Shown here piece after piece: positions 14,107 to 34,789 of a stretch of 51,033 nucleotides of DNA. The DNA is taken from assembly GCA_035483035.1 (NCBI GenBank), contig DATHQE010000268.1:1-51033 (forward strand). Reading direction: 5' to 3'. Both the position numbers and the translations under genes were made by a program. The stretch comes from Streptosporangiaceae bacterium. Lineage in GTDB: Bacteria > Actinomycetota > Actinomycetes > Streptosporangiales > Streptosporangiaceae. Position 1 is the stretch's first letter, and the number at the start of each line of letters is the position of its first letter. Under the pieces are notes generated by a model. It searched no databases, was not told the DNA's origin, and saw only the letters and a list, made by a program, of their open reading frames with translations.

Positions 14107-14161
14107 TCCCACGCGTGCCCCTGAAGTATGTGAGACGTCGTCTCGGCCCAATTGTCAGTCT

Positions 14162-14175
14162 ACCAAGCGCTTGCT
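14162..14175. promoter_or_regulatory. KstR2-type operator box 4: ACCAAGCGCTTGCT
   Basis: Perfect core, centred between divergent amidohydrolase genes. It is bracketed by -10-like hexamers TAGACT (minus strand, 14157-14162) and TAGATT (plus strand, 14175-14180). Confidence 0.8.
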
Positions 14176-14221
14176 AGATTAGCGCCATTCGCTGACCGCA
14201 CAAGGCCTGGGGAGATTCGAG

Positions 14222-16194: not shown

Positions 16195-16225
16195 GCGTGG
16201 GACCTTAACGCAGCCCGGTCCGCGA

Positions 16226-16239
16226 AGCAATCGCTTGCT
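16226..16239. promoter_or_regulatory. KstR2-type operator box 5: AGCAATCGCTTGCT (one mismatch)
   Basis: Lies in the 76-nt divergent region between the crotonase start (16194) and the CoA-transferase start (16271). Confidence 0.65.
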
Positions 16240-16270
16240 TGGTAGCGAAGGGCCGTGCCACCATACCCGC

Positions 16271-17503: not shown

Positions 17504-18334
17504 CTGCAGCAGCGGCCGGGCGAACGTCTCCACGTTGCCGCCGTTGACCTGGCCCGGCCGTCCGACGATGGTCAGCGTCAGCACCACCCGGCCGGCGGCG
17601 TCAAACGCGGGCGCGATCAGGTGGGTCACCGGGTAAGGCGCCTGCTGTCCGTCGGGTGCCCCGCGGACCAGGTCGGCGACAGTAAGCGCGAGTTCAAGGC
17701 GTTCGCTGGCGGAGCTGCGGCCGATCCGCTCGATCAGCTGCTCCACTTGCAGCGCCACCTCCATGCCGCCGCCGATGGAGTAACCGCGGCCCTTGATCGC
17801 GGCTAGCGCGCGCCGGTGCGCCTCGAACTCGGCGGCGTCGGTGGTGCCGCCGACGCGGTCAAGCCAGTCGTCGATCACCGCTGGCGGTGACCAGGCGAAG
17901 TACACCGACCCCAGCGGCGGCCTGGCGGGCACCCGGAGCGCGTCCAGCGACGGGAGGTCAAACTCCCTGCTCTCGCCGCCAGCTCTATCCAGGATGACCA
18001 TTTCCATGCCGACCAGGCGGCAGGCGAAGCAGGCCACGTCCAGCCGCCGGGCTAGGGCGAACATCTCCCGGCGGGCAACATCGATGCCGGGCACCTGCTC
18101 AATGCTGGCCCAGCCGAGGTGAACAAGCTCGGGACCGGGGCGATAGGTCTTGCTCGATTCCTCGCGCACCACCCAGCCCAGCTCGGCCAGGCAGGCCAGC
18201 TGAGCGAAGCAGGTTGCCTTCGACATTCCCGTTGCCACGGCTACTGCTGAGACTGTGAGCGCACGGCCTGGATCTGAGCAGAGCAGCCGGAGTATCTGAT
18301 CGGCCCGCTGGAGCGCGGGAACTGCGGTCGCCAT
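17456..18334 (-). CDS. IclR-family transcriptional regulator
   Basis: 292 aa. N-terminal wHTH ALQRADQILRLLCSDPGRALTVSAVAVATGMSKATCFAQLACLAELGWV followed by an IclR-type effector domain. Confidence 0.9.
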   Translation of the reverse strand: MATAVPALQRADQILRLLCSDPGRALTVSAVAVATGMSKATCFAQLACLAELGWVVREESSKTYRPGPELVHLGWASIEQVPGIDVARREMFALARRLDVACFACRLVGMEMVILDRAGGESREFDLPSLDALRVPARPPLGSVYFAWSPPAVIDDWLDRVGGTTDAAEFEAHRRALAAIKGRGYSIGGGMEVALQVEQLIERIGRSSASERLELALTVADLVRGAPDGQQAPYPVTHLIAPAFDAAGRVVLTLTIVGRPGQVNGGNVETFARPLLQSVDLVTAAIGGRRPA

Positions 18335-20586: not shown

Positions 20587-21477
20587 TCACTCGACGAAGG
20601 TCGCGACCGCCGTCGTGATGGTCGCCCGGTCGCTGTCCCGCACGCACGCCAGCTCAGCGTGCAGCACCCCGCCGGCGTGCCGGACGGTCGATCTCAGCTC
20701 GCAGCGCAGTCGGTCGCCTAGCCATGATGGCGACAGGAACCGGAGGTCCAGTGACCGGATCCGCTCCGCCCCGTACAGCTCGGTAGCCAGATCGCAGAGC
20801 ACGGCGGCTGGGTACAGCCCAGGCACCAGGACGGCCGGCCAGCCTGCTCTCATGGCGGCCGCGGGGTCGTGGTGCACGGGATTGAAGTCACCGCTGGCGC
20901 CCTGATAGCGCACGATCTCGGTCTGCGTGATCGGGCCGAGCCTGCGGGCCGCCTGCGACCGGCTCGCCGTCGCAAGCCGGCTGGCGACGTGCGCCTTGTC
21001 GGATAGCTGGGTCAAGGGCCGGGCAGCAGGCGCTGCGTCCCGGTTGGGCAACGGCTGGACCGAAGTCGTGCATGCGGTCGCTACCAGAATGCCGCTGCCT
21101 GTCCGAAACTCGGTATCAAGCCGGACCTCGGCTGCAGTGCCCAGGCTGCGCGACGGGCGGGTCCGCACGTCCGTCACGGCGGTTCGGACGAAGAGCGCGG
21201 TTCCGGCTGGTGGTGCTCCGCCGGTGAACCTGAACTCCTGGCGCGCGTGCAGCGGCGGAGTTCGCACGTCCCAGCCGACGCGGCGGACGGCCGATCCCTC
21301 GGCGGGCTCCCAGAGGAACTGCGCCACCTTGAGCAGGACCGGCATAGCGATCGGATCGGGGCCCAGGTAGGCCGGCTGCCCGGAGCCCACCGCCCGGGCC
21401 AGCTCGCGGATCTTGCCGGCCTCGACAACGAAGCCAAATTCTGGGCCGTGATACCCGAGCGCCGACGCGTCGACCAT
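20587..21477 (-). CDS. Double hotdog MaoC-like (R)-specific enoyl-CoA hydratase (fused N- and C-terminal MaoC domains)
   Basis: ORF 20587-21591, with ATG 21477 (MVDASALGY) preferred. The N half (FGFVVEAGKIRELARAVG) resembles MaoC N-terminal/FAS1-like dehydratase domains. The C half has RYQGASGDFNPVHHDPAAA. Confidence 0.8.
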   Translation of the reverse strand: MVDASALGYHGPEFGFVVEAGKIRELARAVGSGQPAYLGPDPIAMPVLLKVAQFLWEPAEGSAVRRVGWDVRTPPLHARQEFRFTGGAPPAGTALFVRTAVTDVRTRPSRSLGTAAEVRLDTEFRTGSGILVATACTTSVQPLPNRDAAPAARPLTQLSDKAHVASRLATASRSQAARRLGPITQTEIVRYQGASGDFNPVHHDPAAAMRAGWPAVLVPGLYPAAVLCDLATELYGAERIRSLDLRFLSPSWLGDRLRCELRSTVRHAGGVLHAELACVRDSDRATITTAVATFVE

Positions 21478-21505
21478 CCCGGCTTCCGTCCGCCGCGTGC
21501 GCTCG

Positions 21506-22357
21506 TCAGGGCGCGATAGGGCGGTTGGTCCAGTTCCGCCCAGGGCGCGAGGAGGAGCGGAACCACCCGCCAGCCGCCCCGGTGCCGCCATCGGTCGGGA
21601 TGGTGTGACCGGTGACGAAGCCCGACATGTCGCTGGCGAGGAACAAGATGACCCGAGCCTGGTCTTCGGGCACTCCCATGCGCCCGGCCGGCACCCACAG
21701 CGGCCACATCGCGTGCTGATCAGGCGTCAGCCACTGCGAGTACGGCACCTGGAGCGACTCGGTAACATCCGGCCCGACGCCGTTGACGCGAACGCCCTGG
21801 TGGCCGACTTGGACAGCCAGGCTGCGGGTGAAGTGGACAACGGCAGCCTTGAACGCCGCGTACACCGGGTCCTCCGGGTAGCCTCGCAGGCCCTCTACCG
21901 ACGAGACGTTGACGATCGCGCCGGATCCGCGAGCGGTCATCGAGGGCAGGAACGCGTGGCAGGCGAGGAACACATGGAACAGGTTGACCTTGTACAGCTC
22001 GTCCCAATGTGCCAGGTCGCCGTCGGCGAAGGCGCCCACCTGCCGGACCCAGTGCCCGACATTGTTGACCAGCACGTCGACGTGACCGTGCTGGCTGAGC
22101 GCGGTACGGGCCAGGGCATGCACCTGATCTGGCACGCGCACGTCCGTGATCACCGACGTGGCCGCGCCCCCTAGGGCGGTGATCTCGTTGGTGGTGCGGG
22201 CGGCCAGCTCAGGGTCGATGTCGGCGATGACCACCTGGGCGCCGTGAGCAGCGAAGAGGCGGGCCGTAGCCGCGCCGATGCCGCCGCCACCGCCTGTGAC
22301 GACCGCTACCTTTCCCGCAAGCAGCGTCCCGGAATCGCCGGGCTGTGGCGTAGTCAC
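21506..22357 (-). CDS. Classical SDR
   Basis: GTG start in a GTGA overlap with the upstream stop. TGGGGGIGAAT, NNVG and YAAFKAAV are present. Confidence 0.9.
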   Translation of the reverse strand: MTTPQPGDSGTLLAGKVAVVTGGGGGIGAATARLFAAHGAQVVIADIDPELAARTTNEITALGGAATSVITDVRVPDQVHALARTALSQHGHVDVLVNNVGHWVRQVGAFADGDLAHWDELYKVNLFHVFLACHAFLPSMTARGSGAIVNVSSVEGLRGYPEDPVYAAFKAAVVHFTRSLAVQVGHQGVRVNGVGPDVTESLQVPYSQWLTPDQHAMWPLWVPAGRMGVPEDQARVILFLASDMSGFVTGHTIPTDGGTGAAGGWFRSSSRPGRNWTNRPIAP

Positions 22358-23334
22358 GCTGATTCCCCTCTGGTGAGCGCAGTACCGACGGCGTCCGTCC
22401 GGCCTGCCGCCGCCCGGAACGCCGCCACGATCTCCGGCAGCACGTCGGACGCCGTGAGGTGATCGTCCGGCAGCGAGATGCGGCTGCGGAAGTCAGTGAC
22501 GCCTGCCGCAGCCAGCTCCGGCACGGCGGCCATTGTCGCGGGCAGGTCAAGCGCGCCGTCGCCGGCTCGGACGGCGCGCAGGCTCCCGACCACTTGCAGG
22601 CCAGCGGGATCGCGTCCGGCATCGGCGAGCGCGTCTTTCATCGCGACGACCGCAGCCGCAACGTCGCGGGCGGCGTCGCCCCACGGAATCCAGCCGACAC
22701 CGAACCGGGCAAGCCTGCGCACGACCCGCGGGTTCACCGTGCCTGACACCCAGATTGGTACCCCGTGCGGCCGCACCGGCTTCGGCATCATGTGGATGGC
22801 CTCGAAGCTCAGGTAGGGCGAGGAATACTCGGCGCGCTGCTGGCTCCATAGCGTCTGGCAGACGGCCAGGGTGTCGTCCAGCAGGGCGCCGCGATCGTCG
22901 AAGTCAAGTCCGGCGGCCAGGTACTCCTCGCGCTGCCAGCCGACGCCAACGCCAAGGTCGAGGCGGCCGCCAGACAGCACGTCCAGCGTCGCCGCCGACT
23001 TCGCCAGCACGGCCGGCCGACGCAGTGCGGCGATCATGATGTTGGTGCCCAGGCGAATGTGCCTGGTCGCCCCCGCCACCACGGCGAGAGTGGTCAGCGG
23101 CTCCAGCCAGTGCCCGTCGGGACCGGTCGGCTGCACACCGCCGGCCTGGCCGCCGATCTCAGGACGGCCATATTCCTCCAGGCGCTCGCCGAACACGACG
23201 TGGTCGGACACCACCAGCCGATCGACGCCGGCCGCATCGAGCAATCGGGCGCGGTCCAGGACGAAGTCCCAGCTGCCGGGGTCAGCTGCGCTGTAGCACG
23301 GCAGCGGCATGGACAGCTGAGGGAAGGCTGCCAT
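22354..23334 (-). CDS. LLM-class oxidoreductase, probably F420-dependent subgroup
   Basis: 326 aa. AGVDRLVVSDHVVF, IRLGTNIMIAALRRPAVLAKSAATLDVLSGGRLDLGVGVGW and PHGVPIWVSG are typical of LLM/F420 family members. Cofactor assignment is tentative. Confidence 0.8.
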   Translation of the reverse strand: MAAFPQLSMPLPCYSAADPGSWDFVLDRARLLDAAGVDRLVVSDHVVFGERLEEYGRPEIGGQAGGVQPTGPDGHWLEPLTTLAVVAGATRHIRLGTNIMIAALRRPAVLAKSAATLDVLSGGRLDLGVGVGWQREEYLAAGLDFDDRGALLDDTLAVCQTLWSQQRAEYSSPYLSFEAIHMMPKPVRPHGVPIWVSGTVNPRVVRRLARFGVGWIPWGDAARDVAAAVVAMKDALADAGRDPAGLQVVGSLRAVRAGDGALDLPATMAAVPELAAAGVTDFRSRISLPDDHLTASDVLPEIVAAFRAAAGRTDAVGTALTRGESA

Positions 23335-24528
23335 TCAGGTGCGGTCGAGGCTCAGCATGCGGATCGCGTTGCCGCGAAGGATCTTGTACTTCTCCTCATC
23401 GGAAAGGCCGTCCAGGTGCTCCTCTGCGATCTTCTTAGTGTCCGGCCAGGTTGAGTCCGTGTGCGGGTAGTCCGTCTCGAACGTGATGGTGTCGATGCCG
23501 ATGGAGTCCCGTGCCTGCACCCCGTGGCGATCACGGAAGAAGCAGCCGAAGATGTTGCGTCCGTAGTAGGTGGACGGCGGTTCTGGTACCAGGTCCTTGG
23601 CGCCGATCCAGGCGCGATGCTCCTGCCACACCGTGTCGGCCCGCTCGAGCAGGTAGGGCAGCCAGCCGATCTGACCCTCGGAGTAGGCGAGCTTCAGCGC
23701 GGGGAACTGCACCAGCTTGCCGGAGAACAGCCAGTCGGCCATGGATGCCATGGCGTTGTTGAACGACAGCGTGGCCGCGACGCCGTCCGGCGCATCGGCT
23801 GATGTCGCGGGCATCCGAGACGACGAGCCGATGTGCATGTTGATCGTCGTGGCGGTCTCCGCGCAGGCGGCGAAGAACGGGTCCCAGAATCCGCTGTGGA
23901 TGCTCGGCAGCCCGAGGTGCGGCGGAATCTCACTGAAGCACACGGCGTGCACGCCACGCGCGGCGTTGCGGCGGACCTCCTGAGCGGCCAGCTCAGCGTC
24001 CCAGAGCGGCACGATGATTAGCGGTATCAGTACGCCGCCGCTATCTCCGCACCACTCGTCCACCATGAAGTCGTTGTAGGCCTTGATGCAGGCCAGCCCG
24101 AGGTCGTGGTCTTTGACCTCGGTGAAGGTCTGACCGCAAAACCGCGGGAACGTCGGGAAGCAGAGCGAACCGTCCACCCAGTTCAGCACCATGTCGTCGA
24201 CCCGCGCCTTGGGGTCATAACACCCCGGACGCATCTCGTCGTACGTCATCGGCGTCATCGTCATCTCGTCCCGGCTGTAGCCGACCGCGGCGACGTGGCG
24301 CTTGTGGATGTAGACCAGGTCCTCGAAAACCCAGCAGTCAGCCGGCTGCCCGGCGGGGTCGAACGTCTGCTGATAGGTGCCGCCACCGACGTGCTTGATC
24401 TCACCGATGCCGCGCCGCTCGATCCGCGGGCCACGGTCCCGGTACCTGGCGGGCAGCCAGTTGAGCCACGTGTGCGGTGGCTCCACCACGTGATCGTCCA
24501 CGCTGATGATCTTCGGCAGCTCGGTCAT
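23335..24528 (-). CDS. Amidohydrolase_2 (PF04909) family protein, long form
   Basis: 397 aa. N-terminal ISVDDHVVEPPHTW metal motif and C-terminal FETDYPHTDSTWP. GAGGAA precedes the ATG. Its stop directly abuts the next gene start (23334/23335). Confidence 0.85.
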   Translation of the reverse strand: MTELPKIISVDDHVVEPPHTWLNWLPARYRDRGPRIERRGIGEIKHVGGGTYQQTFDPAGQPADCWVFEDLVYIHKRHVAAVGYSRDEMTMTPMTYDEMRPGCYDPKARVDDMVLNWVDGSLCFPTFPRFCGQTFTEVKDHDLGLACIKAYNDFMVDEWCGDSGGVLIPLIIVPLWDAELAAQEVRRNAARGVHAVCFSEIPPHLGLPSIHSGFWDPFFAACAETATTINMHIGSSSRMPATSADAPDGVAATLSFNNAMASMADWLFSGKLVQFPALKLAYSEGQIGWLPYLLERADTVWQEHRAWIGAKDLVPEPPSTYYGRNIFGCFFRDRHGVQARDSIGIDTITFETDYPHTDSTWPDTKKIAEEHLDGLSDEEKYKILRGNAIRMLSLDRT

Positions 24529-24551
24529 GCGGGTTCCTCGGGTTTCGTCGC

Positions 24552-24594
24552 TTCTGATGCTCCGTCAGAAACCGATTCTGACAGTCCGTCAGAT
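24552..24594. promoter_or_regulatory. Two tandem palindromic operators, TTCTGA-N7-TCAGAA and TTCTGA-N7-TCAGAT, 24 nt apart
   Basis: 24552-24570 is TTCTGAtgctccgTCAGAA and 24576-24594 is TTCTGAcagtccgTCAGAT. They lie 24-66 nt upstream of the amidohydrolase ATG (24528, minus strand) and upstream of the divergent TetR gene. Confidence 0.6.
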
Positions 24595-24654
24595 AGCTGT
24601 CGAGACCTGAAGCGTGGCGGAGACGAGGAAAACGCCGCAATCAGGGGTCGCCAT

Positions 24655-24673
24655 ATCTGACGGGCCGTCAAGT
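24655..24673. promoter_or_regulatory. Third, imperfect copy of the TCTGA-N7-TCAGA operator (ATCTGAcgggccgTCAAGT)
   Basis: Shares the TCTGA arm, 7-nt spacer and CCGTCA. It lies 12 nt upstream of the TetR ATG (24685) and overlaps a TACGCT -10-like hexamer (24673-24678). Confidence 0.45.
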
Positions 24674-24684
24674 ACGCTTGCTCA

Positions 24685-25404
24685 ATGGTGCGGAAGCTGG
24701 ATGACATGAGCCTGGCAGAGAGCGCACAGGCCGCTGTCGGGCCGCGTGAAGTGCGAGCAGCCAGTGGCCGCTTGGCGGGAACGCGCGCGCTCGCGACGCG
24801 AGCCCGGCTGCTGGACTGCACCAGGCAGCTACTGGCCGGGCGTTCCTATCGCGACCTGACCGCGATCGAAATCGCCCGCGAGTGCGGTACGAGCCCGGCG
24901 ACCTTCTACCAGTACTTCCCGGACGTCGAGTCCGCCGTGCTGACCGTCGCGGCAGAGCTGGCTGGTCACCGCGGCGAGCTGAGCGAGATCGTCCGCAGTG
25001 CGAACTGGCGCGACCGGACCGCGGCCGAGACGGCTGCTCGAGACCTGGCCAGGGCTTTCATGGACTTCTGGGGCCGGCACCGCTCGGTGCTGCGAGTGAT
25101 AGACCTGAGCTCCGCCGAGGGGGACATGCGCTTCCGCACGCTGCGCACGGAGCTACTCAACGATGTCACCAACGCGCTGGCAGAGGCGATCGCGGATGTC
25201 CGCGACCCGCGCCGGCCCGGTCATCTTGGGCCTGGCACCGATCCGATGGCGGTTGCCGCCGTGCTCGTCTCGATGCTGGCGCACGTGGCGTCCCATCGCG
25301 AAGGGCTCGAAACCTGGGGCATAGCCTCCGCCGACACCGAGGCGGTGATGGCGGACATCGTGTGCGAGGCGGTGGCCGGGCGTCCGTCGCGCCGGGGCAG
25401 CTAG
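24685..25404 (+). CDS. TetR-family transcriptional regulator
   Basis: 239 aa. HTH region TRARLLDCTRQLLAGRSYRDLTAIEIARECGTSPATFYQYFPDVESAV. The stop TAG (25402-25404) shares CTAG with the convergent gene. Confidence 0.9.
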   Translation: MVRKLDDMSLAESAQAAVGPREVRAASGRLAGTRALATRARLLDCTRQLLAGRSYRDLTAIEIARECGTSPATFYQYFPDVESAVLTVAAELAGHRGELSEIVRSANWRDRTAAETAARDLARAFMDFWGRHRSVLRVIDLSSAEGDMRFRTLRTELLNDVTNALAEAIADVRDPRRPGHLGPGTDPMAVAAVLVSMLAHVASHREGLETWGIASADTEAVMADIVCEAVAGRPSRRGS

Positions 25405-27554
25405 CCTGACGGATGCCAGAGCGGATCGGCGGCCCGCACGACTGGCTCGCCGCGCAACAGGACTTGCGCATCGACCTGAGTGGCGCAGCCAGGGCAGTAC
25501 AGCCGGTGCAGCTGGAAACGCTCGCCACCCGGGTAGCCGGCCGACCAGGGCGCTACGGACCGCGTCGGCACCGCGTCGTCGATCAGTCGGGCGTACGCGT
25601 CACCGCCCGGCGGCGCCAGCAGCGTGCCGCAGGTCCGGCACTCCAGGCTCCCGTCAGCGCGAATCGCCAGGGCCGCGCTGAACCGCGAGCCGGTTCCGCC
25701 GTCGCGGGGCACCGGGACCCGGCCGCCTAGGCGCCGTCGGCGCCGCTGCTCGCGCAGTCGCGTGGTAGCCGCGACGTCGAGCACCCAGCCGACCCCGGCA
25801 TCCCCGGTGAGGACGGTGCCGTAGTCCAGCGCCGCCCGCCGCGGGCTCACCCGGCCGAGCTGTACGTCCCGCGTGACAGCGTGCGGGTCGCGCTCAAGCG
25901 GATCACCATGACCACCGCCGCCCTGGCTCACCGCCACATGCGCCTGACCGGTGGCGACCGCGGAGCGCCGGGTCGGCAGTTCCAGCTCGGCCCCCTCAGT
26001 AAGGCCATCGGCCAGCTGCAGCGCGGCGGCGCGGTCAGCGATGGCGTAGATGCTCTGGCGGCCCGGCTCGCCCCCGGCCAGTCCAGCGGCGGCAGGGTGC
26101 TGCAGCCCCTGTGCGAACGACAGCACGGCGACTGGTCCGTCCGCCGCATGGGGGGCGATGACGTTCACGCAGCCGAGGCCGCCGCGATATCGGCCCGGGC
26201 CGCCAGAGTCGGCCAGCTCGGAGCGCCGCAGGTACAGCAGCGGCAGATAGCTCTCATTGACCTCGACGTCGGCGCATGAGGCGCCTGGCGAGGTGGTCGT
26301 GCCCGAACTGCTGAGCCCGTCGTGCTCGCCGCTGGCCCCGCCGCCGCCGGCCAGCTCGTCTAGCGTCATGGCGGCGAACGCCTCGCCGTCCGTGCCTAGC
26401 CCGGCGAATACCCCGCCGCCGCCGCCCGACGAACAGCAGCTGGCCAGTGCGGTGCGGGCCAGCACCGGGTCGGATTCGAGCATCCTGGACACGCACGCGT
26501 TCACCGCGACCCGGATCGCCTGGCAGGACGAGGCCGTGCTCATCGCGACACCGCCGGGCCACCGGGCGTGGGCGATGGTGCCCTCCCGGCTGGTGATCGT
26601 GCAGACGGCCATGATCGCGCCGGGCACCCACGGCAGGTCGCCGCACAGGTAGATCATGACGGCGGCGACAGCGAAATTGACCAGAGCCGGGTAGGCGGCG
26701 TTGATCGCGCCGGGTGCCTGGTCCGAGCTCGCTGAGAAGTCGAGGTCCAGGCTGTCGCCCACCTTGGTGACGGTGAGCCGGACCGCGTAGACGTCGCTGT
26801 CATCGGGCTGCGGCGTTCCCCGCTCCAGGTAGCTGACATGACGCCAGCGGCCATCGGGAAGCGCGGCCAGTCGTGCCCGCAGCCGCTGTTCGGCGGCGAC
26901 GATCAGGCTGTCCATCACCTGCGTGACCGTTTCCGTGCCGTACTTCTCGCACAGCGCCTGCACAGCCGCGACGGTGCCGCGATTGGCGGCCAGCTGGCCG
27001 CGCAGGTCGAGCTCGTTCAGCTCAGGCGTCCGCGAGCGGCGCAGGAAGTCGCGCTGGACATCTCGCTGGACCCGGCCGCCGGCGACGATCTTGATCGGCG
27101 GCAGGGGAGTGGGCTCGTCGAAGATCGACCCGGCCTCGAAGGTCATGCCGCCCGCCGACGGGCCACCCACGTCGAACTGGTGGACGCTGGACCCGCACCA
27201 GGCGACGAGCTGGCCGCCGTGGAAGACCGGTGCCACGACGACGACGTCTGGCTGATGCAGGGTCCCCACGTACGGGTCATTCGTCAGGAACTGGTCGCCA
27301 GGTCCGATGCCCGGGCTGTCGCGATACTCCCGCATGATGTCGGTGGTGACCAGGTTCATCGAAGCGAGCTGGCAAAGGACGTAGTAGCCGCAGGCGACCA
27401 CAGTGCCGTCGGCGGTCGTGATCGCGGTATTCAGGTCGTTAGCCTCGACCGCTACGGGCGAGCCTGACACCTGCCGCAAGGTGATCGCTGCTTCCTCGTT
27501 GATGCTGTCGAGGCGGTGCCGGATGATCTCAAGTCTGATCGGGTCGACAGGCAT
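25401..27554 (-). CDS. Hydantoinase B/oxoprolinase-family subunit fused to a C-terminal four-Cys domain resembling acetone carboxylase gamma
   Basis: ORF 25401-27593, with ATG 27554 (MPVDPIRLEIIRHRL) preferred and GGAG upstream. The body is HyuB-like. The last ~80 aa contain CRTC-x44-CPGC with FQLHRLYCPGCATQVD, resembling the Zn-binding gamma subunit of acetone carboxylases (from memory of that family). Confidence 0.85.
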   Translation of the reverse strand: MPVDPIRLEIIRHRLDSINEEAAITLRQVSGSPVAVEANDLNTAITTADGTVVACGYYVLCQLASMNLVTTDIMREYRDSPGIGPGDQFLTNDPYVGTLHQPDVVVVAPVFHGGQLVAWCGSSVHQFDVGGPSAGGMTFEAGSIFDEPTPLPPIKIVAGGRVQRDVQRDFLRRSRTPELNELDLRGQLAANRGTVAAVQALCEKYGTETVTQVMDSLIVAAEQRLRARLAALPDGRWRHVSYLERGTPQPDDSDVYAVRLTVTKVGDSLDLDFSASSDQAPGAINAAYPALVNFAVAAVMIYLCGDLPWVPGAIMAVCTITSREGTIAHARWPGGVAMSTASSCQAIRVAVNACVSRMLESDPVLARTALASCCSSGGGGGVFAGLGTDGEAFAAMTLDELAGGGGASGEHDGLSSSGTTTSPGASCADVEVNESYLPLLYLRRSELADSGGPGRYRGGLGCVNVIAPHAADGPVAVLSFAQGLQHPAAAGLAGGEPGRQSIYAIADRAAALQLADGLTEGAELELPTRRSAVATGQAHVAVSQGGGGHGDPLERDPHAVTRDVQLGRVSPRRAALDYGTVLTGDAGVGWVLDVAATTRLREQRRRRRLGGRVPVPRDGGTGSRFSAALAIRADGSLECRTCGTLLAPPGGDAYARLIDDAVPTRSVAPWSAGYPGGERFQLHRLYCPGCATQVDAQVLLRGEPVVRAADPLWHPSG

Positions 27555-27564
27555 ATGCGCTCCG

Positions 27565-29616
27565 CTAACTCCCGAGCTCGAGATGCAGCTCACCGGTCTG
27601 CCCGACGACGGCGGCCTGCCCTGGGCGGACGATCGCCGTCGTCGTCTCGGCTTCGATGAAGGCCGGCCCGGCCACGCGCTGGCCCGCGCCTAGATCCGCC
27701 CAGCGATAGACGCTGCAGCGCACGTCCCAGCCTTCGAACACCGCGGTCTTGTGCCGGGCGGGCCGGCCGGGGGCCGGCCCGCGGGAGGCGGTGGCCGGAA
27801 CTGCCGTTGGCAGCCAGGCGTCAACGGCGACCGACAGGACCTCGACGGGCGTCTCCTCGGGTGCCGTGCCAGGGCCGATCACCCGCTCGTATCGATCGCG
27901 GAAGCGCTCGATGAGGTCCCCGGCCGTCGCGGCCGCGGGAACCTCGACCTCGATGCGGTGCAGCTGGCGGTGGAAGCGCAGCCCGGCGCTGCGGGTGACG
28001 CGGATCTCCGCGTGCGGACCCGCGCCGTGCAGCTGACGGCGAACCTCGGGCTCAAGCTCGGCCAGAGCGGCCCGGACCTGGCTGAGCGCCTCGGCTAGCG
28101 GCTGCGGGCGCAGGTCCCGCTCGGCGCGCACGCGCAGGTCACCGCACAGTGCGCCGTACGCGGACAGGCCTGCTGCGAGCGCAGGGATAATCACGCCGCG
28201 GACGCCTAGCCCGGCGGCGAACCAGGCCGCGTACTGAGGCCCGGCGCCGCCGTAGGCCAGCAGCGCGAAGTCGGCCGGGTCATGGCCGCGCTGGATCGTT
28301 GCGCGGCGAACCAGGTCGCGCATCTGCTCGCAGGCGACCTGCACGATCCCGTCCGCCGCAGCTGTCACGCTGAGCCCGAGCGGCTCGGCGATCTCCCTGC
28401 GTATCGCGTCGGTAGCGGCGTCGCCGTCCAGCTGGAGGCTGCCGCCCAGCCGGTCAATATAGCCCAGCACGACGGCTGCGTCGGTCAGCGTCGGCCGGAT
28501 ACCGCCGAGTCCGTAGCAGGCCGGTCCCGGGCTGGCCGCGGCCGTCTGCGGCCCTACGCGCAGCGACCCGAGCGCGTCGTCGATCCAGGCTATGCTGCCG
28601 CCCCCGGTGCCAATCGACTCGATGTCGACCGCCCTTACCGCGAGCGGCAGTCGGCTGATCGTCGGCCGGCGGGCGTACTGAGGCTCGCCGTCGATGATCA
28701 GCCCGACGTCGAAGCTGGTGCCGCCGACGTCGGCGGCGATGACGCTGGCGAAGCCGGCCTGGGCGCACAGCCGGCGTGCGGCGGCGACACCGCCAGCCGG
28801 CCCGGACCGCAGCGTGTGGACCGGTTGCTGCCGGGCAGCCTGGGCCGGCTGGACTCCGCCGCCCATCCGCACCACGAGGAGCGTTCCGCCGAAGCCAAGC
28901 TCACGCAGCTGCTTTTCCAGCCGCTCCAGGTATGAGCTCACCAGTGGCGCAATGTAGGCATCGATGACCGCGGTGGTCATCCGCTCGTACTCACCGATCC
29001 GGGACGCAAGGCGGTTTGATGTCGTGACCGGCACACCGGGCGCGAGTTCTGCGACTAGCTCGCGGACTCGGTCCTCATGCACAGGATTGGCCGGCGACCA
29101 CAACAGGCAGACCGCCAGGGACCGCACCCCGCGGCGCAGCAGCCCGGCGATCGCTGCCCTGACCTGATCATCGTCCAGATCGGCCAGCACGGCGCCGGAA
29201 GCGTCGACGCGACCGGCGACGCCGACGATGTCACGCGGATCAACGAGAACGTCCGGCTTGGCCCATCGGGCTGGCGCCTGCCGGTCGGCAATCGGCAGAT
29301 CGTGGATCTTGTTCGACTTCGCGATGGACAGCGTCGATTCAAAGCCCTCGGTCGTGATCAGGCCGACCCGAGCGCCCGCGCCCGTCAGCACAGCGTTCAA
29401 GCCAACCGTCGTGCCATGCGCCAGGACGTCTGTGGTCGCGAGCAGCCCGGCGAGATCGGTGCCGACCATCGGTGCGGCCCGGCGCAACGCAGCCAGCACA
29501 CCGTCTTCGAGGTGGCCGGGAGTCGACAGCGCCTTGGCAACGGCCAGCTGTCCGCTGCCGGTGACCACGACGACGTCCGTGAACGTGCCGCCCGTGTCGA
29601 CGCCGATCAGTTGCAT
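27565..29616 (-). CDS. Hydantoinase A/oxoprolinase-family ATP-binding subunit
   Basis: 683 aa. N-terminal MQLIGVDTGGTFTDVVV ASKHA-fold phosphate motif and a second ADVGGTSFDVG motif. Confidence 0.9.
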   Translation of the reverse strand: MQLIGVDTGGTFTDVVVVTGSGQLAVAKALSTPGHLEDGVLAALRRAAPMVGTDLAGLLATTDVLAHGTTVGLNAVLTGAGARVGLITTEGFESTLSIAKSNKIHDLPIADRQAPARWAKPDVLVDPRDIVGVAGRVDASGAVLADLDDDQVRAAIAGLLRRGVRSLAVCLLWSPANPVHEDRVRELVAELAPGVPVTTSNRLASRIGEYERMTTAVIDAYIAPLVSSYLERLEKQLRELGFGGTLLVVRMGGGVQPAQAARQQPVHTLRSGPAGGVAAARRLCAQAGFASVIAADVGGTSFDVGLIIDGEPQYARRPTISRLPLAVRAVDIESIGTGGGSIAWIDDALGSLRVGPQTAAASPGPACYGLGGIRPTLTDAAVVLGYIDRLGGSLQLDGDAATDAIRREIAEPLGLSVTAAADGIVQVACEQMRDLVRRATIQRGHDPADFALLAYGGAGPQYAAWFAAGLGVRGVIIPALAAGLSAYGALCGDLRVRAERDLRPQPLAEALSQVRAALAELEPEVRRQLHGAGPHAEIRVTRSAGLRFHRQLHRIEVEVPAAATAGDLIERFRDRYERVIGPGTAPEETPVEVLSVAVDAWLPTAVPATASRGPAPGRPARHKTAVFEGWDVRCSVYRWADLGAGQRVAGPAFIEAETTTAIVRPGQAAVVGQTGELHLELGS

Positions 29617-29638
29617 GCCGCTGGTTTCGTGCAGGCGA

Positions 29639-30481
29639 TCACGGCTGAGCCCCGCCGTGCACCGGAATGGTCACGCCGGAGACATACGACGCGGCGTCTG
29701 AGCAGAGGAACTCGATCACCGCGGCGGTCTCGTCTGCGTCCTGAGCGCGGCCTAGCGGGATCTGACGGGCGGTCCACTCGGCGAACGAGATGCCCTGCCG
29801 CTCGGCCAGAGCGATAAGGCCGGGATTGGGGAACCGCTGGCTCGGGGCGACGCTGAGCGGGGCGACGGCATTGACCCGAATCTGGTCCGGGCCGAGTTCC
29901 TTAGCCAGGACGGACACCAGGTGATTCACGGCGACCCGGGCGGCGCCAAGAGCCCCGACGCCTGCCTTGGGGACGAGCGCGGCCTGCGAGGACAGCACCA
30001 CGATCGTGCCCGGCCGGCCCGCAGCCCGCATAGCCCGCGCCGCGGCTCGAACCAGCAGCCAGGGAGCTGTCAGGTTGAGTTCCAGGCCGCGGGCCCAGGC
30101 ATCCTCGGTCACGTCAAGCAGCGCACCGTCGCCAGCGTGCGGGCCGGTGATGCCGTTGAGCGCGCAGCACACGTCCAGGCGGCCGAAGCGGGCGGTCGTG
30201 GCATCGACGAGCTGCTGCCACGAACGCGAGTCGGCCTCGCGCTGCGGGAGCGCCAGCACGTGGCCGCCGCCGGGCCGGGCGGCCTGCTCGATCTCGGCCA
30301 CCACGTCGTCGAAGAGCGCTGGCGTGACCGTGCCAGTGTCTGCGGGCCGTGCCGCGAGCAGGTCCGCGCACGCCACCGTGAAGCCAGCGCGGGCCAGGCG
30401 CAGCGCCGTCGCCCGGCCGATGCCCGGCGGCCTGGCGACGCCTGAGACCAGCGCGACGCGGTTGACGGGCGCAGGGTGCAC
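29639..30481 (-). CDS. Atypical SDR-fold protein (catalytic Tyr-x3-Lys apparently replaced)
   Basis: GTG start with GGAGG 5 nt upstream. The Rossmann-like motif is VALVSGVARPPGIGRAT. Where YxxxK is expected after LSSQAAL the sequence reads GALGAARVAV (Leu and Arg by manual alignment). Confidence 0.8.
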   Translation of the reverse strand: MHPAPVNRVALVSGVARPPGIGRATALRLARAGFTVACADLLAARPADTGTVTPALFDDVVAEIEQAARPGGGHVLALPQREADSRSWQQLVDATTARFGRLDVCCALNGITGPHAGDGALLDVTEDAWARGLELNLTAPWLLVRAAARAMRAAGRPGTIVVLSSQAALVPKAGVGALGAARVAVNHLVSVLAKELGPDQIRVNAVAPLSVAPSQRFPNPGLIALAERQGISFAEWTARQIPLGRAQDADETAAVIEFLCSDAASYVSGVTIPVHGGAQP

Positions 30482-30526
30482 GGTACCTCCGGCCGCTCGC
30501 GACGAGCGCTACCTGGACGAGTAAAG

Positions 30527-30545
30527 ATCTGATTGACCGTCAGAA
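30527..30545. promoter_or_regulatory. Fourth copy of the TCTGA-N7-TCAGA operator (ATCTGAttgaccgTCAGAA)
   Basis: Lies in the 132-nt divergent region between the SDR start (30481) and the ligase start (30614), 11 nt upstream of a TAGGCT -10-like hexamer (30557-30562). Confidence 0.6.
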
Positions 30546-30583
30546 AGTAGCGCCGTTAGGCTCTGCGATCAAGGCCACGGGTG

Positions 30584-30597
30584 ACCAAGCGCTTGGC
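30584..30597. promoter_or_regulatory. KstR2-type operator box 8: ACCAAGCGCTTGGC
   Basis: Perfect CAAGCGCTTG core, 3 nt upstream of the GGAGGA Shine-Dalgarno (30601-30606) of the ligase gene. Confidence 0.7.
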
Positions 30598-30613
30598 CGG
30601 GGAGGATTTGCCG

Positions 30614-32743
30614 ATGACCGCAGTTGCCCATCCCGGCTCAGGAGCGGCCCTCGCCGATGCCCCTGACCTGCACAGATTCTTCCATCCGCGCAGCGTCGCT
30701 GTCATTGGCGCGACCGACAAGCAGGGCAGTCCCGGGACCATCAACTGGAGACTGATCCACCGCTGGGCACAGCGGGCCGGCGCGGAGATCTACCCGGTCA
30801 ACCCGAACCGGCCCACCGTGGACGGCGTCCGCGCCTACCCGTCGCTCGCCGATGTCCCGGAAGTGCCGGACGTGGCAGTCGTGATGGTCGGCGACGTCGT
30901 GGCAGCCCTGCGCGAAGTGGTCGCCAAGGGGGCTGGGTTCGTGGTGATCTTCGCCAGTGACTTCGCCGAGACAGGCGCAGAAGGCGCGGCCCGGCAGCGG
31001 GAGCTCGTGTCGATCATCGAGGGCACCGGCGTACGGCTGCTGGGCCCGAACACCAATCTGAACGCATTCGAGAACTTCCGCGCCGACCTGCCCGGGCCAG
31101 CGATCTCGATGATCACTCAAAGCGGACACCAGGGCCGACCGGTCTTCCAGGGTCAGGAGATCGGCATCCGGCTCAATCACTGGGCCCCGACCGGGAACGA
31201 AGCTGACCTCAGCTCGGCCGATTTCATCGACTACTTCTCCACCCTGCCAGAGACCGGGGCGATCGCTGCGTACCTGGAGGGCGTCACCGATGGCCCGGCG
31301 TTCCAGCGCGCGATCGCGGCGGCGGCAAGGCGCGCTGTCCCGGTCGTGGTGGTGAAAGTAGGCCGGACCGAAGTGGGCAGGTCATGGGCGCTGTCGCACA
31401 CCGGTCATCTGGCCGGGTCGGACGAGATCGTGTCTGCCGTGCTGCGTCAGTACGGCGTGATCCGGGTCGAGGGCCTCGACGAACTGCTGGACACTGCGAC
31501 CATGCTGGCCAGGTCCCGCCCGCCTGCCGTCGCCGGCGTGTGCGTCTACTCGATCTCGGGCGGAACCAGCGCCCACATGGCCGACATGCTCACGGCCGCC
31601 GGGGTCGCCCTGCCCGAGTTGGAAGAATCGACCAGGACGCAGCTTCGCGAGTGGATTCCCGGCTACCTGCGGATCAGCAACCCCATCGACAACGGCGGGC
31701 ACCCGGTCGGGGACTGGCGCGGTCGCAAGATCCTGGCTGCGCTGCTCGCTGACCCGAACGTCGGCGTCCTGGTCGTCCCCATCACGGGCGCCTTCAGCCC
31801 GATGAGCGACAAGTTCGTCGCCGACCTCGCCGCGGCCGCGGAGACCACCGACAAGCCCATCTGCGTGGTGTGGGGATCGCCGGTCGGCACCGAGGCCGCC
31901 TATTGCGAGGGACTGCTGTCATCGTCACGCATCGTCACCTTCCGCACTTTCCGCAACTGTGTCACAGCAGTGCGCGCTTACCTGGACTTCCACGCCTTCC
32001 AGCAGCGCGTCCACGAGCTCCCTGCCGAGCCGGCGCAGCAGCCCGGCCGAACAGCCGAAGCGACCCGGGCACTGACCGAGCCTGAGGCCAAGCGACTGCT
32101 GGCGCGCTACGGGATCCCGGTCACCCTGGACGTCCTCGCCAGCACAGCAGACGATGCCGTCGCTGCGGCGGCCGAGATCGGCCCGCCGGTGGTGCTGAAG
32201 GCGGTGTCGGCCGGGATTGCGCACAAGTCCGACCTCGGCCTGGTGCGAATCGGGGTGACCGCGCCGGACGACGTGCGCAGCACCTTTAGCGACTTCGAGG
32301 CCAGGGTGGCAGCGGTGCCCGGCGCCGAGTTCGACGGGGTTCTGGTCTGCGAGCAGGCCAGCGGCGGGGTCGAGATGGTGGTCGGCATCGCGAGGGACGA
32401 GGTGTTCGGCCCCGTGGTGATGGCCGGGATCGGCGGGGTCGCGGTCGAGGTGTACCGCGACGTGACCTTCCGGCTGCCGCCGTTCAGCCGGGCCGAGGCG
32501 CGCCGGATGATCGATGACCTGCGCGGGGCAGTGCTCCTGCTCGGCCATCGGGGTTCCCCGCCCGCGGACCTCGACGCTCTCGTCGACGTGATCATGAAAG
32601 TTCAGCAGATCGCCCTGGACGGCTCGGTCGGCGAGCTAGACATCAATCCGCTGCTCGTATCTGAGCACGGTGCTGTCGCGCTGGATGCGCTCGCTACCGT
32701 CATCGGTGCGGAAGCTATGAATGACGAGGCCACACATGACTGA
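30614..32743 (+). CDS. ADP-forming (NDP-forming) acyl-CoA synthetase, fused CoA-binding/succinyl-CoA-synthetase-like and ATP-grasp domains
   Basis: The ORF track starts at GTG 30581. ATG 30614 is preferred because of GGAGGA and because it leaves box 8 untranslated. FFHPRSVAVIGATDKQGSPG is a CoA-binding motif, GPNTNLNAF is present, and the C-terminal part (AKRLLARYGIPV...VLKAVSAGIAHKSDLGLV) is ATP-grasp. Confidence 0.85.
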   Translation: MTAVAHPGSGAALADAPDLHRFFHPRSVAVIGATDKQGSPGTINWRLIHRWAQRAGAEIYPVNPNRPTVDGVRAYPSLADVPEVPDVAVVMVGDVVAALREVVAKGAGFVVIFASDFAETGAEGAARQRELVSIIEGTGVRLLGPNTNLNAFENFRADLPGPAISMITQSGHQGRPVFQGQEIGIRLNHWAPTGNEADLSSADFIDYFSTLPETGAIAAYLEGVTDGPAFQRAIAAAARRAVPVVVVKVGRTEVGRSWALSHTGHLAGSDEIVSAVLRQYGVIRVEGLDELLDTATMLARSRPPAVAGVCVYSISGGTSAHMADMLTAAGVALPELEESTRTQLREWIPGYLRISNPIDNGGHPVGDWRGRKILAALLADPNVGVLVVPITGAFSPMSDKFVADLAAAAETTDKPICVVWGSPVGTEAAYCEGLLSSSRIVTFRTFRNCVTAVRAYLDFHAFQQRVHELPAEPAQQPGRTAEATRALTEPEAKRLLARYGIPVTLDVLASTADDAVAAAAEIGPPVVLKAVSAGIAHKSDLGLVRIGVTAPDDVRSTFSDFEARVAAVPGAEFDGVLVCEQASGGVEMVVGIARDEVFGPVVMAGIGGVAVEVYRDVTFRLPPFSRAEARRMIDDLRGAVLLLGHRGSPPADLDALVDVIMKVQQIALDGSVGELDINPLLVSEHGAVALDALATVIGAEAMNDEATHD

Positions 32744-34022
32744 GCCAGCACCGCTGCTGTCGGGTGTCCGGGTGCTTGAGGCATCGCTGCTGGAGCCAGC
32801 GGCCCTCGGCATGATCCTCGCCGATCTCGGCGCTGACGTGATCAAGGTGGAGCCACCTGGCGGGGACTACGTGCGCACCATGGCCTGGCCGATCATCGAG
32901 GGTGTCTCGCTGCTGCACTGGCACGTGAATCGCGGCAAGCGCAGCGTCGAGCTAGACCTGCGCACGGAGGCCGGTGTCTCGGTGTTCCTGGACCTGGCCG
33001 CGCAGAGCGACATCGTGATCGAGGCCATGCGACCGGGCGCGCTCGCCCGGCGCGGCATCACCGTCGAGCGGCTGCGCGAGCGGCGGCCGGATCTGGTGAT
33101 CTGCAACGTCTCCGGCTGGGGCAGCACCGGTCCGTACCGCAATATCCCGTCACACGGCATCGGGTTCGACGTGTGGGCTGGACTCGCGGAGCCGGCTACC
33201 GACGACGAGGGGTTCGCCTACATGCCGGACCACACCACCGTCGGCGTGCGGGTGACGCCGGTGTGGGGCGCGCTCGCCGTCTGTGCTGCGCTGCTGCGGG
33301 CCCGCGCGACCGGAGTTGGCGCCCAGATCGACCTGGCGCAAAGCGATGTGGCAGCGATCACGAACTGGTTCCGGATCGAGGGAGCACGCGCTTACGAGCG
33401 TCCGGAGGAAGAAGTGACTGGCAACCCCGCCGACGGGGGACAGCGGCGTGATCCGGGCATCACCGGCATGCTGGGGTCGGTGCGCTACCAGTACTACCGG
33501 ACCAGCGACGGCTACATTCTGCTGATGGCGTCCGAGCGGGAGTTCTGGCAGAACTTCTGCGCTGCCGTGAACCGCATGGACCTGTTCGAGGGGCGAACCG
33601 GCAGCAGGTACGCCGACCACGCCCGCGGCGACCGGGTGCTACAGCGAGAATTGCAGCAGCTGTTCGTGACCCGGACCACGGCGGAGTGGGTGGCACTGGG
33701 CAATTCGGCCAACTGCCCGATTGCCAAAGTGAACGACGCCACCTCAATCACTGCCGACCCGGCATTCGCGGAGCGGCTGCCGTGGCTGCCTGCCGCCGAG
33801 TTCGGCACCGACCTGATGCCGTCCCCGGTCGGCCTCATCGGCGAGCAACGGGTCGCCTCGCGGCGGGCGCCGCGGCCGGGCGAGCACACCGCCGAGGTGC
33901 TGCGTGAGGTGCTGGGCGTGACCGGCGAGCGGCTGGCAGAGCTGCGCGCGGCCGGCGCGGTGCCGGATACGCACCAGCCGGATGCGCACCAGCCGGAGAA
34001 GTCGCCCGGAGCGACGCAGTGA
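32736..34022 (+). CDS. Family III CoA-transferase (CaiB/BaiF family) with repeat-containing C-terminal tail
   Basis: ATG 32736 (ATGACTGA overlap) or ATG 32721. LLSGVRVLEASLLEPAALGMILADLGADVIKVEPPGG and EAMRPGALARRGI are present. The tail is PDTHQPDAHQPEKSP. Confidence 0.9.
   Translation: MTEPAPLLSGVRVLEASLLEPAALGMILADLGADVIKVEPPGGDYVRTMAWPIIEGVSLLHWHVNRGKRSVELDLRTEAGVSVFLDLAAQSDIVIEAMRPGALARRGITVERLRERRPDLVICNVSGWGSTGPYRNIPSHGIGFDVWAGLAEPATDDEGFAYMPDHTTVGVRVTPVWGALAVCAALLRARATGVGAQIDLAQSDVAAITNWFRIEGARAYERPEEEVTGNPADGGQRRDPGITGMLGSVRYQYYRTSDGYILLMASEREFWQNFCAAVNRMDLFEGRTGSRYADHARGDRVLQRELQQLFVTRTTAEWVALGNSANCPIAKVNDATSITADPAFAERLPWLPAAEFGTDLMPSPVGLIGEQRVASRRAPRPGEHTAEVLREVLGVTGERLAELRAAGAVPDTHQPDAHQPEKSPGATQ
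33969..33998 (+). repeat. 15-nt tandem repeat x2 (acGCACCAGCCGGAt / gcGCACCAGCCGGAg)
   Basis: Read directly. Encodes THQPD-AHQPE at the 3' end of the CoA-transferase gene. A partial third unit (CCGGAT) precedes it. Confidence 0.85.
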
Positions 34023-34070
34023 ACGAGAGCGATGCAGTGAACGAGAGCGACAGGGTGAACGAGAAGGTGT
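34017..34070 (+). repeat. 18-nt tandem repeat x3 spanning a stop/start junction (CAGTGAACGAGAGCGAnn)
   Basis: The units are cagtgaacgagagcgatg, cagtgaacgagagcgaca and gggtgaacgagaaggtgt. Each carries an in-frame GTG, and they encode VNESDA-VNESDR-VNEKVY. Confidence 0.85.
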
Positions 34071-34789
34071 ACATCCACGAGCTCATCGACATCATCGGCC
34101 AGAACCGGGCCAGGTACATGTATCACATGACCGCCAACTGGAGCCCGATCGGTCAAGAGGAGCGCGGCCAGCAGTGCTACGGCGTCTGGGGGGTAGTGGG
34201 CAGCACCGCCCGGTGGCCGCAAGTCGTGAATATCTGGGAGGAGGACGGCTTCGACGGGCTGGCGCGGTCGTTCCAGCACGAGCTCGGGCACGACACTTTG
34301 CAGGATCCCAAGCTGGCGAAATGGTGGGCGCAGGCCGCGGGCTATCGGTCTGGCGGCTTCGATCGCATCCTGGTGCCGGCGCCGTGGATGCGCACCGGCG
34401 CTGAGGCCATTGCCGACGGGGTGGCCGGCGAAGTGCACGCGCATGTGCAGGTGCAGCTGCGCCCCGGTGCCGCGCCCGAGTACCTGGCCGCTGCGCACGA
34501 CGGCTCGAAGGCAATGACGTCACGGTTCGGCTGGCAGCTGACTGGCGCATGGCGCACAGCGATGGCCGGCGACGCGGAGTGCATCCTGCTGTGGACCATC
34601 CCGACCTGGCACGCCTGGGCCGAAGCCGAGAAGGCGCTGACCGCCGAGCCCGGGCTTGGCCGGCTGGGCGCCGAGCTGGACGTACTTAGCGTCCACCGGT
34701 TCCTGATGGTCGACGCGCCGCTGTCCCCATTCCGGATTCGCCGACAGCCAGCCCGTTCCGATCGCACGGACGCCTACAGCGAGGTGTGA
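34019..34789 (+). CDS. Hypothetical protein, possibly tandem NIPSNAP-like (dimeric alpha/beta barrel) domains
   Basis: GTGA overlap with the upstream stop. Two ~100-aa halves each have a pattern like VYIHELIDI...YGVWGVVGSTARWPQVVNIWEEDGF, reminiscent of NIPSNAP proteins. The functional call is weak, and the true start could be any of three repeated GTGs. Confidence 0.5.
   Translation: MNESDAVNESDRVNEKVYIHELIDIIGQNRARYMYHMTANWSPIGQEERGQQCYGVWGVVGSTARWPQVVNIWEEDGFDGLARSFQHELGHDTLQDPKLAKWWAQAAGYRSGGFDRILVPAPWMRTGAEAIADGVAGEVHAHVQVQLRPGAAPEYLAAAHDGSKAMTSRFGWQLTGAWRTAMAGDAECILLWTIPTWHAWAEAEKALTAEPGLGRLGAELDVLSVHRFLMVDAPLSPFRIRRQPARSDRTDAYSEV

Follow-up and report, generated by a model that had tools for sequence, protein, structure and literature searches.

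The 51,033-nt contig DATHQE010000268.1 of a Streptosporangiaceae bacterium (the window in what follows; G+C content 68%), which derives from a soil metagenome, contains four intergenic copies of a 19-bp palindrome. We propose that these are operators of the TetR-family regulator encoded at 24685-25404, which would repress its own, probably leaderless, promoter together with three catabolic operons, which would serve the breakdown of lipids or terpenoids. We put the probability of this reading at about 80%; repression as the sign of control, the positions of the promoters and the nature of the ligand are the parts of it that we infer. A preliminary interpretation made from the letters of the window alone (the sequence-only reading) had proposed an operator family that ties the local TetR to its own divergent region and to a second region 6 kb away. 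This proposal is supported by the conservation of the sites in orthologous contigs, by their enrichment, and by their position in front of the same targets in other genomes.

All four copies were recovered where they had been reported, with exactly the letters reported (Table 1). The motif had been described as TCTGA-N7-TCAGA. It extends over 19 bp as a palindrome, A-TCTGACGG-n-CCGTCAGA-T, and each of the four copies is an imperfect version of TCTGACGG-n-CCGTCAGA. The family-wide form, derived from an alignment of 166 matches from other genomes, is likewise a 19-bp palindrome, ATCTGACGG-n-CCGTCAGAT, with the core CTGACG-N5-CGTCAG. In these 166 matches, conservation extends to positions that the search pattern left unspecified and reaches 85% for the flanking A/T and 89, 78 and 55% for the inner C, G and G, respectively.

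The rarity of the pattern was confirmed in the window: exact TCTGA-N7-TCAGA occurs three times against 0.03 expected, and none of 100 shuffled sequences reached three. When two mismatches are allowed, the pattern becomes uninformative in the window (14 found against 12.8 expected), so that copy 3, which reads TCAAG where the pattern has TCAGA, needed separate support, and a 19-bp weight matrix was used instead. The matrix was trained on the 166 sites, all of which come from other genomes, and it picks exactly the four copies in 51 kb; the next best position scores 9.9 bits and lies inside a gene. Dinucleotide shuffles of the window contained on average 0.08 sites of at least 15 bits, with a maximum of two. 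Copy 3 carries CCGTCAGA on the minus strand and is hence the same palindrome with the good half-site on the other side. In the window as a whole, CCGTCAGA is found seven times against 2.7 expected.

Copies 1 and 2 do start 24 nt apart, as had been noted. The accompanying suggestion that they form a duplicated 24-nt unit was not upheld, because the two units match at 17 of 24 positions, nearly all of which are motif positions, and the flanks of the copies are unrelated. Copies 1 and 2 are best described as two adjacent predicted operators, with no evidence for a duplicated unit. The flanks of the four copies are no more alike than random sequences, and a mobile or dispersed repeat was rejected on this ground.

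Conservation of the sites in orthologous regions had been set as a test in advance, and the sites were found to be kept down to 72% identity of the TetR protein. The orthologous contigs are L087 (96% identity to the window TetR), L083-86 (87%) and L081/82 (72%). In all of these, the order of the DitZ-like gene and the divergent TetR gene is retained together with copies 1-3. Copy 2 is identical in every orthologue, and copy 3 reads TTCTGACGGTGCGTCAGGG in L081, which is a better palindrome than the one in the window. The spacer between copies 2 and 3 diverges, and at 72% TetR identity more than 30 nt of it are deleted and the flanks have diverged while the sites remain. L087 and L083 both retain the hydantoinase and ligase operons, and in these two contigs copy 4 is identical along with the sequence around it.

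The motif is also strongly enriched in loci that were selected by protein homology. Eighty loci were chosen solely for encoding a relative of the window TetR, 25 from Acidimicrobiia-type metagenome-assembled genomes and 55 from Streptomyces, with 10 kb taken on either side. Nearly all of them contain the pattern, and together they hold 217 sites of at least 15 bits, compared with 0-2 in shuffled sequences. With the window included, 188 of 221 sites fall between genes in DNA of which about 86% codes for protein, and the median distance from a site to the next start codon is 18 nt. The density of sites is highest beside the TetR gene (0.1-0.37 per kb). In at least 12 of the 25 non-Streptomyces loci the layout is one that would permit autoregulation, a site heading an operon whose last gene is that of the TetR (site, isochorismatase, FadD, LLM or DoxX, TetR).

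The genes that adjoin the sites in these loci recur as well. A site lies directly 5' of homologues of the DitZ-like gene in 10 loci of other genomes (75% median identity) and directly 5' of homologues of the ADP-forming coenzyme A (CoA) ligase in nine loci, Streptomyces included, plus four that are cut by the locus end. Other adjoining genes encode SCP2/Ltp-type thiolases, with a ChsH2-type OB-fold partner nearby, FadE acyl-CoA dehydrogenases, FadD AMP ligases, flavin monooxygenases and family III CoA-transferases. A converse set of 120 metagenome contigs, almost all of high G+C content, was chosen solely for the presence of a perfect palindrome. Here the genes beside the site encode acyl-CoA dehydrogenase (42 cases), CoA-transferase III (13), a thiolase-OB-fold fusion (nine) and a DitZ-like protein (eight), and among small proteins those encoded repeatedly near the site are MaoC-type hydratases, a flavin reductase, an isochorismatase and a DinB-like protein. 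The family of the window TetR is present in seven of these 120 contigs, and no other regulator family recurs in them.

The presumed binder, a protein of 239 amino acids, combines TetR_N (Pfam E-value 3.4e-9, residues 42-80) with TetR_C_38 (E-value 1.2e-33), and its closest relatives are metagenomic and Acidimicrobiia proteins. The family is large, with 1624 proteins at E<=1e-20 and at least 592 genomic matches; no second member was found within the 51-kb window. In a comparison of 32 relatives with identities as low as 46%, the helix-turn-helix segment GTSPATFYQYFPDVE, which contains the DNA-reading helix region, is invariant or nearly so, and this matches the finding that the motif logo is the same in Streptomyces (174 sites) and in the Acidimicrobiia-type loci (43 sites). 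The same degree of conservation is shown by an N-terminal arm, RAxDGRxPGxRG (residues 23-34; 24751-24786).

An AlphaFold (AF2) model of the protein displays a canonical TetR fold with a predicted local distance difference test (pLDDT) score of 88.5, a three-helix DNA-binding domain and helices that extend to residue 231. Residues 1-22 are disordered and the arm that precedes the helix-turn-helix is extended; by analogy with the N-terminal arms of some TetR proteins, it might contact the DNA flanks. The nearest solved structures all belong to the TetR family, EthR being first with a template modelling (TM) score of 0.84 at 20% identity, followed by DesT, FasR and FadR. A close relative with a solved structure was not found, the best profile match being EthR with an E-value of 1.5e-8. 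These four proteins bind ligands of a hydrophobic or acyl-CoA nature, and the resemblance of the model to them suggests that the inducer may be acyl-CoA-like.

Copy 3 ends on the first base of TACGCT (24673-24678), a -10-like hexamer of the TANNNT type that precedes the TetR ATG by 6 nt. This spacing indicates that the TetR mRNA is probably leaderless, in which case copy 3 would occupy about -30 to -12. The Streptomyces relatives share the layout TAAGCT-6 nt-ATG about 20 nt 5' of the TetR core (for example, around position 9990 in L030); it belongs to a stretch of about 90 nt that hardly varies among 48 of the 55 species. In the control region of the DitZ-like operon, a promoter scan found one promoter-like site against 0.1 expected, and its -35 block TGTCGAGA is invariant in the orthologue alignment A2. 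Copy 2 fills the spacer between the -35 and -10 elements of this predicted minus-strand promoter and overlaps its -10, and copy 1 covers the predicted start region.

In the control region at 30.5 kb, the stricter consensus of the scan tool yielded no promoters. Reading by eye with a relaxed actinobacterial -10 gives a candidate ligase promoter on the plus strand (TTGACC 30533-30538, 18 nt, TAGGCT 30557-30562) and a candidate SDR-hydantoinase promoter on the minus strand (TTGATC 30572-30567, 17 nt, TACTTT 30549-30544; SDR, short-chain dehydrogenase/reductase). Copy 4 contains the TTGACC -35-like hexamer and would cover the ligase -35 and, on the minus strand, the edge of the -10 and the start region.

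We also examined four soil metatranscriptomes, in which the most consistent coverage within the 16-36 kb interval is that of the DitZ-like gene (23304-24600), the next gene of operon 1 (22640-23303) is without coverage, and the 30.5-kb region is almost uncovered. The RNA contigs over the DitZ-like gene reach 24555, 24592 and 24600, and none crosses 24601-24711, but the coverage is thin (2-4x contigs), too thin to fix the transcript start, and carried-over DNA is a possible source. If these contigs do represent RNA, the 5' end would be at or beyond 24600, copies 1 and 2 would lie in the leader, and a repressor bound to them would act as a roadblock and not over the core promoter.

Several observations weigh against the assignment of the sites to this TetR. 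Those RNA contigs that extend to 24592-24600 reach upstream of the start at about 24568 that is implied by the predicted promoter, which is a mild conflict. Thirteen of the 80 TetR-selected loci have no site within 10 kb. The Streptomyces TetR gene has no canonical site upstream, the best position there scoring 8.7 bits and overlapping the -10 and the ATG; this position was rejected as an operator, as it is the -10/ATG of the conserved leaderless promoter. The absence of a site of its own in front of the Streptomyces gene means that autoregulation is not universal. The link between the hydantoinase operon and the motif is seen in close relatives only. The presence of the TetR in seven of the 120 motif-selected contigs fits a dispersed regulon, but also an unlinked binder. 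Finally, more than one paralogue with this recognition helix may be present in a genome, so that the local copy and a paralogue are inseparable here.

Some of these observations are shared by an alternative in which the operator is genuine, but is bound by a different regulator encoded elsewhere, e.g. a global regulator of lipid catabolism, the genes of this TetR family being frequent members or neighbours of its regulon. The 113 perfect-site contigs that have no TetR gene nearby, the Streptomyces TetR genes without a canonical site, and the 13 TetR loci without a site within 10 kb all speak in its favor. We nevertheless consider it unlikely. Other regulator families do not recur near the sites in the 120 contigs. 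The two other candidate binders encoded in the window, an IclR-type gene (17456-18334, minus strand) and the KstR2-like TetR, were rejected because they do not co-occur with the motif, homologues turning up in no more than 1 of the 80 and 3 of the 120 loci, if at all. The density of sites peaks at the TetR gene itself, and a site is found at the TetR promoter in the clade of the window and before the TetR-containing operon in other Acidimicrobiia. Furthermore, an invariant recognition helix is paired with an invariant motif.

Somewhat less probable still is that the sites are served mainly by, or shared with, a paralogue that has the same recognition helix and is encoded outside the window. 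The size of the family is in agreement with this idea, and since the recognition helix does not vary, paralogues present side by side would be expected to recognise each other's sites. However, the triple-site arrangement is tightly kept with the promoter of this very gene in all close orthologues, and the 51 kb contain no second family member. A role of the palindrome as RNA, in the form of a 5' leader hairpin with effects on translation or stability, is hardly credible, and the same applies to a dispersed repeat or to similarity by chance. Many sites do lie just 10-30 nt 5' of start codons and the RNA contigs suggest that copies 1 and 2 may be transcribed, but departures from the palindrome are one-sided (pairing is broken 525 times and kept by a double change 25 times), which half-site recognition on DNA by a protein would predict and an RNA stem would not. 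A hairpin would have a loop of 1 nt, the sites occur in either orientation and in divergent regions, there are no Rfam matches in the window, the flanks are unrelated, and the chance expectation is 0.03-0.08 per window.

We therefore return to the TetR at 24685-25404 as the probable binder of all four sites, for which the following mechanism can be envisaged. A TetR homodimer would recognise the palindrome with one CTGACG half-site per helix-turn-helix. In the absence of ligand, the repressor would occupy copy 3, abutting the -10 of its own promoter and resulting in autoregulation, the tandem copies 1 and 2, which span the core promoter and start region of the DitZ-like operon, and copy 4, within the region of back-to-back promoters for the SDR-hydantoinase A/B and ligase operons 5-6 kb away. 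Release of the repressor, and with it joint induction of the four units, would be brought about by an intermediate of the pathway, for which a hydrophobic acid or the CoA thioester of such an acid is the most plausible candidate. The sequence-only reading had counted three co-regulated units; the linkage between them is supported, but the TetR gene itself brings the count to four. The same repressor-operator pair would operate across this TetR family in Acidimicrobiia and Streptomyces and govern dispersed catabolic genes of the acyl-CoA type, namely those for FadD, FadE, SCP2-type thiolase with its ChsH2-type OB-fold partner, CoA-transferase III, the DitZ-like oxygenase and the ADP-forming ligase.

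Table 1. Proposed operator copies, regulators and predicted target operons in the window.
Feature	Position	Strand	Score (bits)	Remarks
Operator copy 1, TTCTGATGCTCCGTCAGAA	24552-24570		22.7	24 nt 5' of the ATG of the DitZ-like gene
Operator copy 2, TTCTGACAGTCCGTCAGAT	24576-24594		27.5	within the predicted minus-strand promoter
Operator copy 3, ATCTGACGGGCCGTCAAGT	24655-24673		18.9	better half-site on the minus strand; presumed autoregulatory site
Operator copy 4, ATCTGATTGACCGTCAGAA	30527-30545		26.7	divergent region between SDR-hydantoinase A/B (-) and ligase operon (+)
Promoter-like site of the DitZ-like operon	24575-24603	-		-35 TCGACA 24603-24598, 17-nt spacer, TG-extended -10 CAGAAT 24580-24575
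TetR-family regulator gene (TetR_N + TetR_C_38)	24685-25404	+		presumed binder; start ATG kept in all orthologues
Target operon 1	20587-24528	-		genes abut or overlap
DitZ-like Amidohydro_2 / dinuclear-oxygenase-type gene	23335-24528	-		operon 1
F420-type luciferase-like oxidoreductase	22354-23334	-		operon 1
SDR	21506-22357	-		operon 1
MaoC-like hydratase	20587-21591	-		operon 1
Target operon 2	25401-30481	-		converges on the TetR gene
SDR	29639-30481	-		operon 2
Hydantoinase/oxoprolinase A-type subunit	27565-29616	-		operon 2
Hydantoinase/oxoprolinase B-type subunit	25401-27593	-		operon 2
Target operon 3	30581-34789	+		
ADP-forming acyl-CoA ligase	from GTG 30581 (longest open reading frame)	+		operon 3; likelier start ATG 30614
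Family III CoA-transferase	32721-34022	+		operon 3
256-amino acid protein without Pfam match	34019-34789	+		operon 3
KstR2-like regulator (TetR_N + TetR_C_24)	43499-44167	-		likely binder of CAAGCGCTTG
CAAGCGCTTG copies, 10 bp each	1894, 4260, 14164, 30586, 34892, 45046			
KstR2-like palindrome, CCAAGCGCTTGG	30585-30596			same control region as copy 4; kept in L083 and L087

Closer inspection of the target genes changed some of their labels. The leading gene of operon 1 had been called an amidohydrolase, but its product is closest to DitZ (PDB 8uyr, E-value 5e-58) and PtmU3 (3e-32). DitZ and PtmU3 are related to amidohydrolases but act as dinuclear (diiron) oxygenases in the hydroxylation of diterpenoids (PMC13154177), and with these as the best matches an oxygenase role is more likely than that of a hydrolase. 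The DitZ-like homologues in other Acidimicrobiia are unusually conserved, the median identity of 75% comparing with about 50% for the TetR. The pair of operon 2 that had been labelled 'carboxylase-like' encodes an enzyme of the hydantoinase/oxoprolinase family (A/B type), for which a 5-oxoprolinase structure, a caprolactamase model and an acetophenone-carboxylase model are the best matches, all under the family cut-offs. The TetR and hydantoinase B-type genes converge and their 3' ends overlap by 4 nt (25401-25404); transcription of the repressed hydantoinase operon would thus run antisense into the end of the repressor gene.

In operon 3, the GTG at 30581 falls inside the KstR2-like control region, and the in-frame ATG at 30614 follows GGAGGA and is the called start in the 87% orthologue. 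The latter is more likely to be the start of the ligase. Elsewhere in the window, the stretch 12050-15370 contains three further Amidohydro_2 genes, at 12050-13207 (minus strand), 13243-14151 (minus) and 14222-15370 (plus). Family III CoA-transferase genes are found at 7930-9081, 9136-10377 and 15530-17503, which makes four when that of operon 3 is included.

The window also carries a KstR2-like system, and the sequence-only reading had described the sites studied here as nested in a KstR2-type regulon. This holds in part: both operators are present at the ligase promoter only, and the repressor-motif pair is found family-wide, including in Streptomyces. The decamer CAAGCGCTTG, which belongs to the KstR2-like operator family, occurs in six exact copies against 0.28 expected. 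The sequence CAAGNNCTTG is present at six places in the window other than copies 1-4, and only the one at 30586-30595 shares a control region with copy 4. There, the palindrome CCAAGCGCTTGG is located just downstream of the presumed ligase start. The presence of copy 4 and a KstR2-like palindrome in one control region places the ligase promoter under predicted dual control by two different TetR systems.

The two systems are distinct. The palindrome of copies 1-4 differs from the CAAG-NN-CTTG type of KstR2 operators, the TetR encoded at 24685 has a TetR_C_38 domain compared with TetR_C_24 in the protein encoded at 43499-44167, and the family profile of the former barely detects the latter (E-value 1e-4). 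Further components of the KstR2-like system in the window are IpdAB-like CoA-transferase subunits, a FadE pair and a FadD gene that is cut by the window start (1-630). One of the CAAGCGCTTG copies, that at 14164, lies between two amidohydrolase genes.

The Streptomyces relatives of the TetR are 43-47% identical to it over residues 22-236. Their genes (L008, L030 and others) adjoin those for an AfsK-like Ser/Thr kinase (Pkinase and PQQ propeller) and a glyoxalase-fold KbpA-like protein, and the sites in these loci precede thiolase, FadE, FadD, flavin monooxygenase and ADP-forming ligase genes. SCO4421 of S. coelicolor is a TetR family regulator encoded close to afsK (SCO4423); it is subject to developmental regulation, and a deletion mutant shows no visible phenotype (PMC3878966). 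Overexpression of SAV3818 in S. avermitilis, where afsK-av is SAV3816, stimulates antibiotic production by a mechanism that was not explained (PMC5640586). The Streptomyces relatives occupy the published position of SCO4421 near afsK, and their location also agrees with the gene numbers of SAV3818 and afsK-av. Judging by this synteny, SCO4421 and SAV3818 probably represent the orthologous family of the window TetR. We found no operator, regulon or ligand for SCO4421 or SAV3818 in the searchable literature. A description of the present operator was not found there either, matches to the motif string being primer and oligonucleotide coincidences. The repressor-motif pair seems to be undescribed, and it represents an ordinary kind of switch rather than a new regulatory principle.

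For the TetR_C_38 family, which has thousands of sequences in soil Actinomycetota and no characterised member, these results provide a concrete, testable DNA target and a candidate regulon. The motif can be used to trace regulon members genome-wide and thereby to mark out an undescribed catabolic pathway in uncultured Acidimicrobiia that would comprise DitZ-like dinuclear oxygenases, CoA ligases and transferases, and hydantoinase-type enzymes. A broader interpretation, which we offer tentatively and with the odds somewhat against it, is that the motif identifies an unrecognised regulon that is widespread in Actinomycetota, has a master repressor of the SCO4421/SAV3818 type, and serves a pathway devoted to polycyclic, terpenoid- or steroid-like acids that are processed as CoA thioesters. 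If so, the enzymes of the pathway would be DitZ-like diiron oxygenases, ChsH/Ltp-type hydratase and thiolase sets, family III CoA-transferases, ADP-forming ligases and ATP-dependent hydantoinase-type enzymes, and an effect on the acyl-CoA pool would explain why SAV3818 overexpression raises antibiotic titres in Streptomyces.

Among the known systems, KstR2 is similar in being a TetR repressor whose short palindrome is repeated in several, often divergent, promoters of CoA-thioester catabolic operons. KstR2 (Rv3557c) represses the catabolism of steroid rings C/D in actinobacteria, and its effector is a CoA thioester (HIP-CoA) that is made by an enzyme of the regulon (PMC5380842). It differs in its operator (CAAG-NN-CTTG compared with CTGACG-N5-CGTCAG here), in its C-terminal domain (TetR_C_24 compared with TetR_C_38), and in taxonomic spread and gene set, as the present family includes the FadD, FadE and thiolase genes of Streptomyces.

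The acyl-CoA-sensing TetR proteins (Thermus/Bacillus FadR, DesT and FasR) and EthR are the nearest by fold and sequence profile, and the content of the regulon (FadD, FadE, thiolase, CoA ligase or transferase) is similar to that of FadR-type regulators. These proteins are nonetheless distant from the window TetR (profile E-value of about 1e-8, about 20% identity), and the sequences of their operators are not known to be related to the present motif. TetR systems with tandem operators are another parallel, copies 1 and 2 being full palindromes that are located 24-25 bp apart, centre to centre, over one promoter and are kept in orthologues, whereas the paired sites at other loci of the present family are 32-155 bp apart. 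Finally, the Streptomyces relatives, which probably belong to the SCO4421/SAV3818 group, differ in that their TetR gene lacks the upstream canonical site of the window TetR gene, but their loci share one and the same operator motif with the Acidimicrobiia-type loci.

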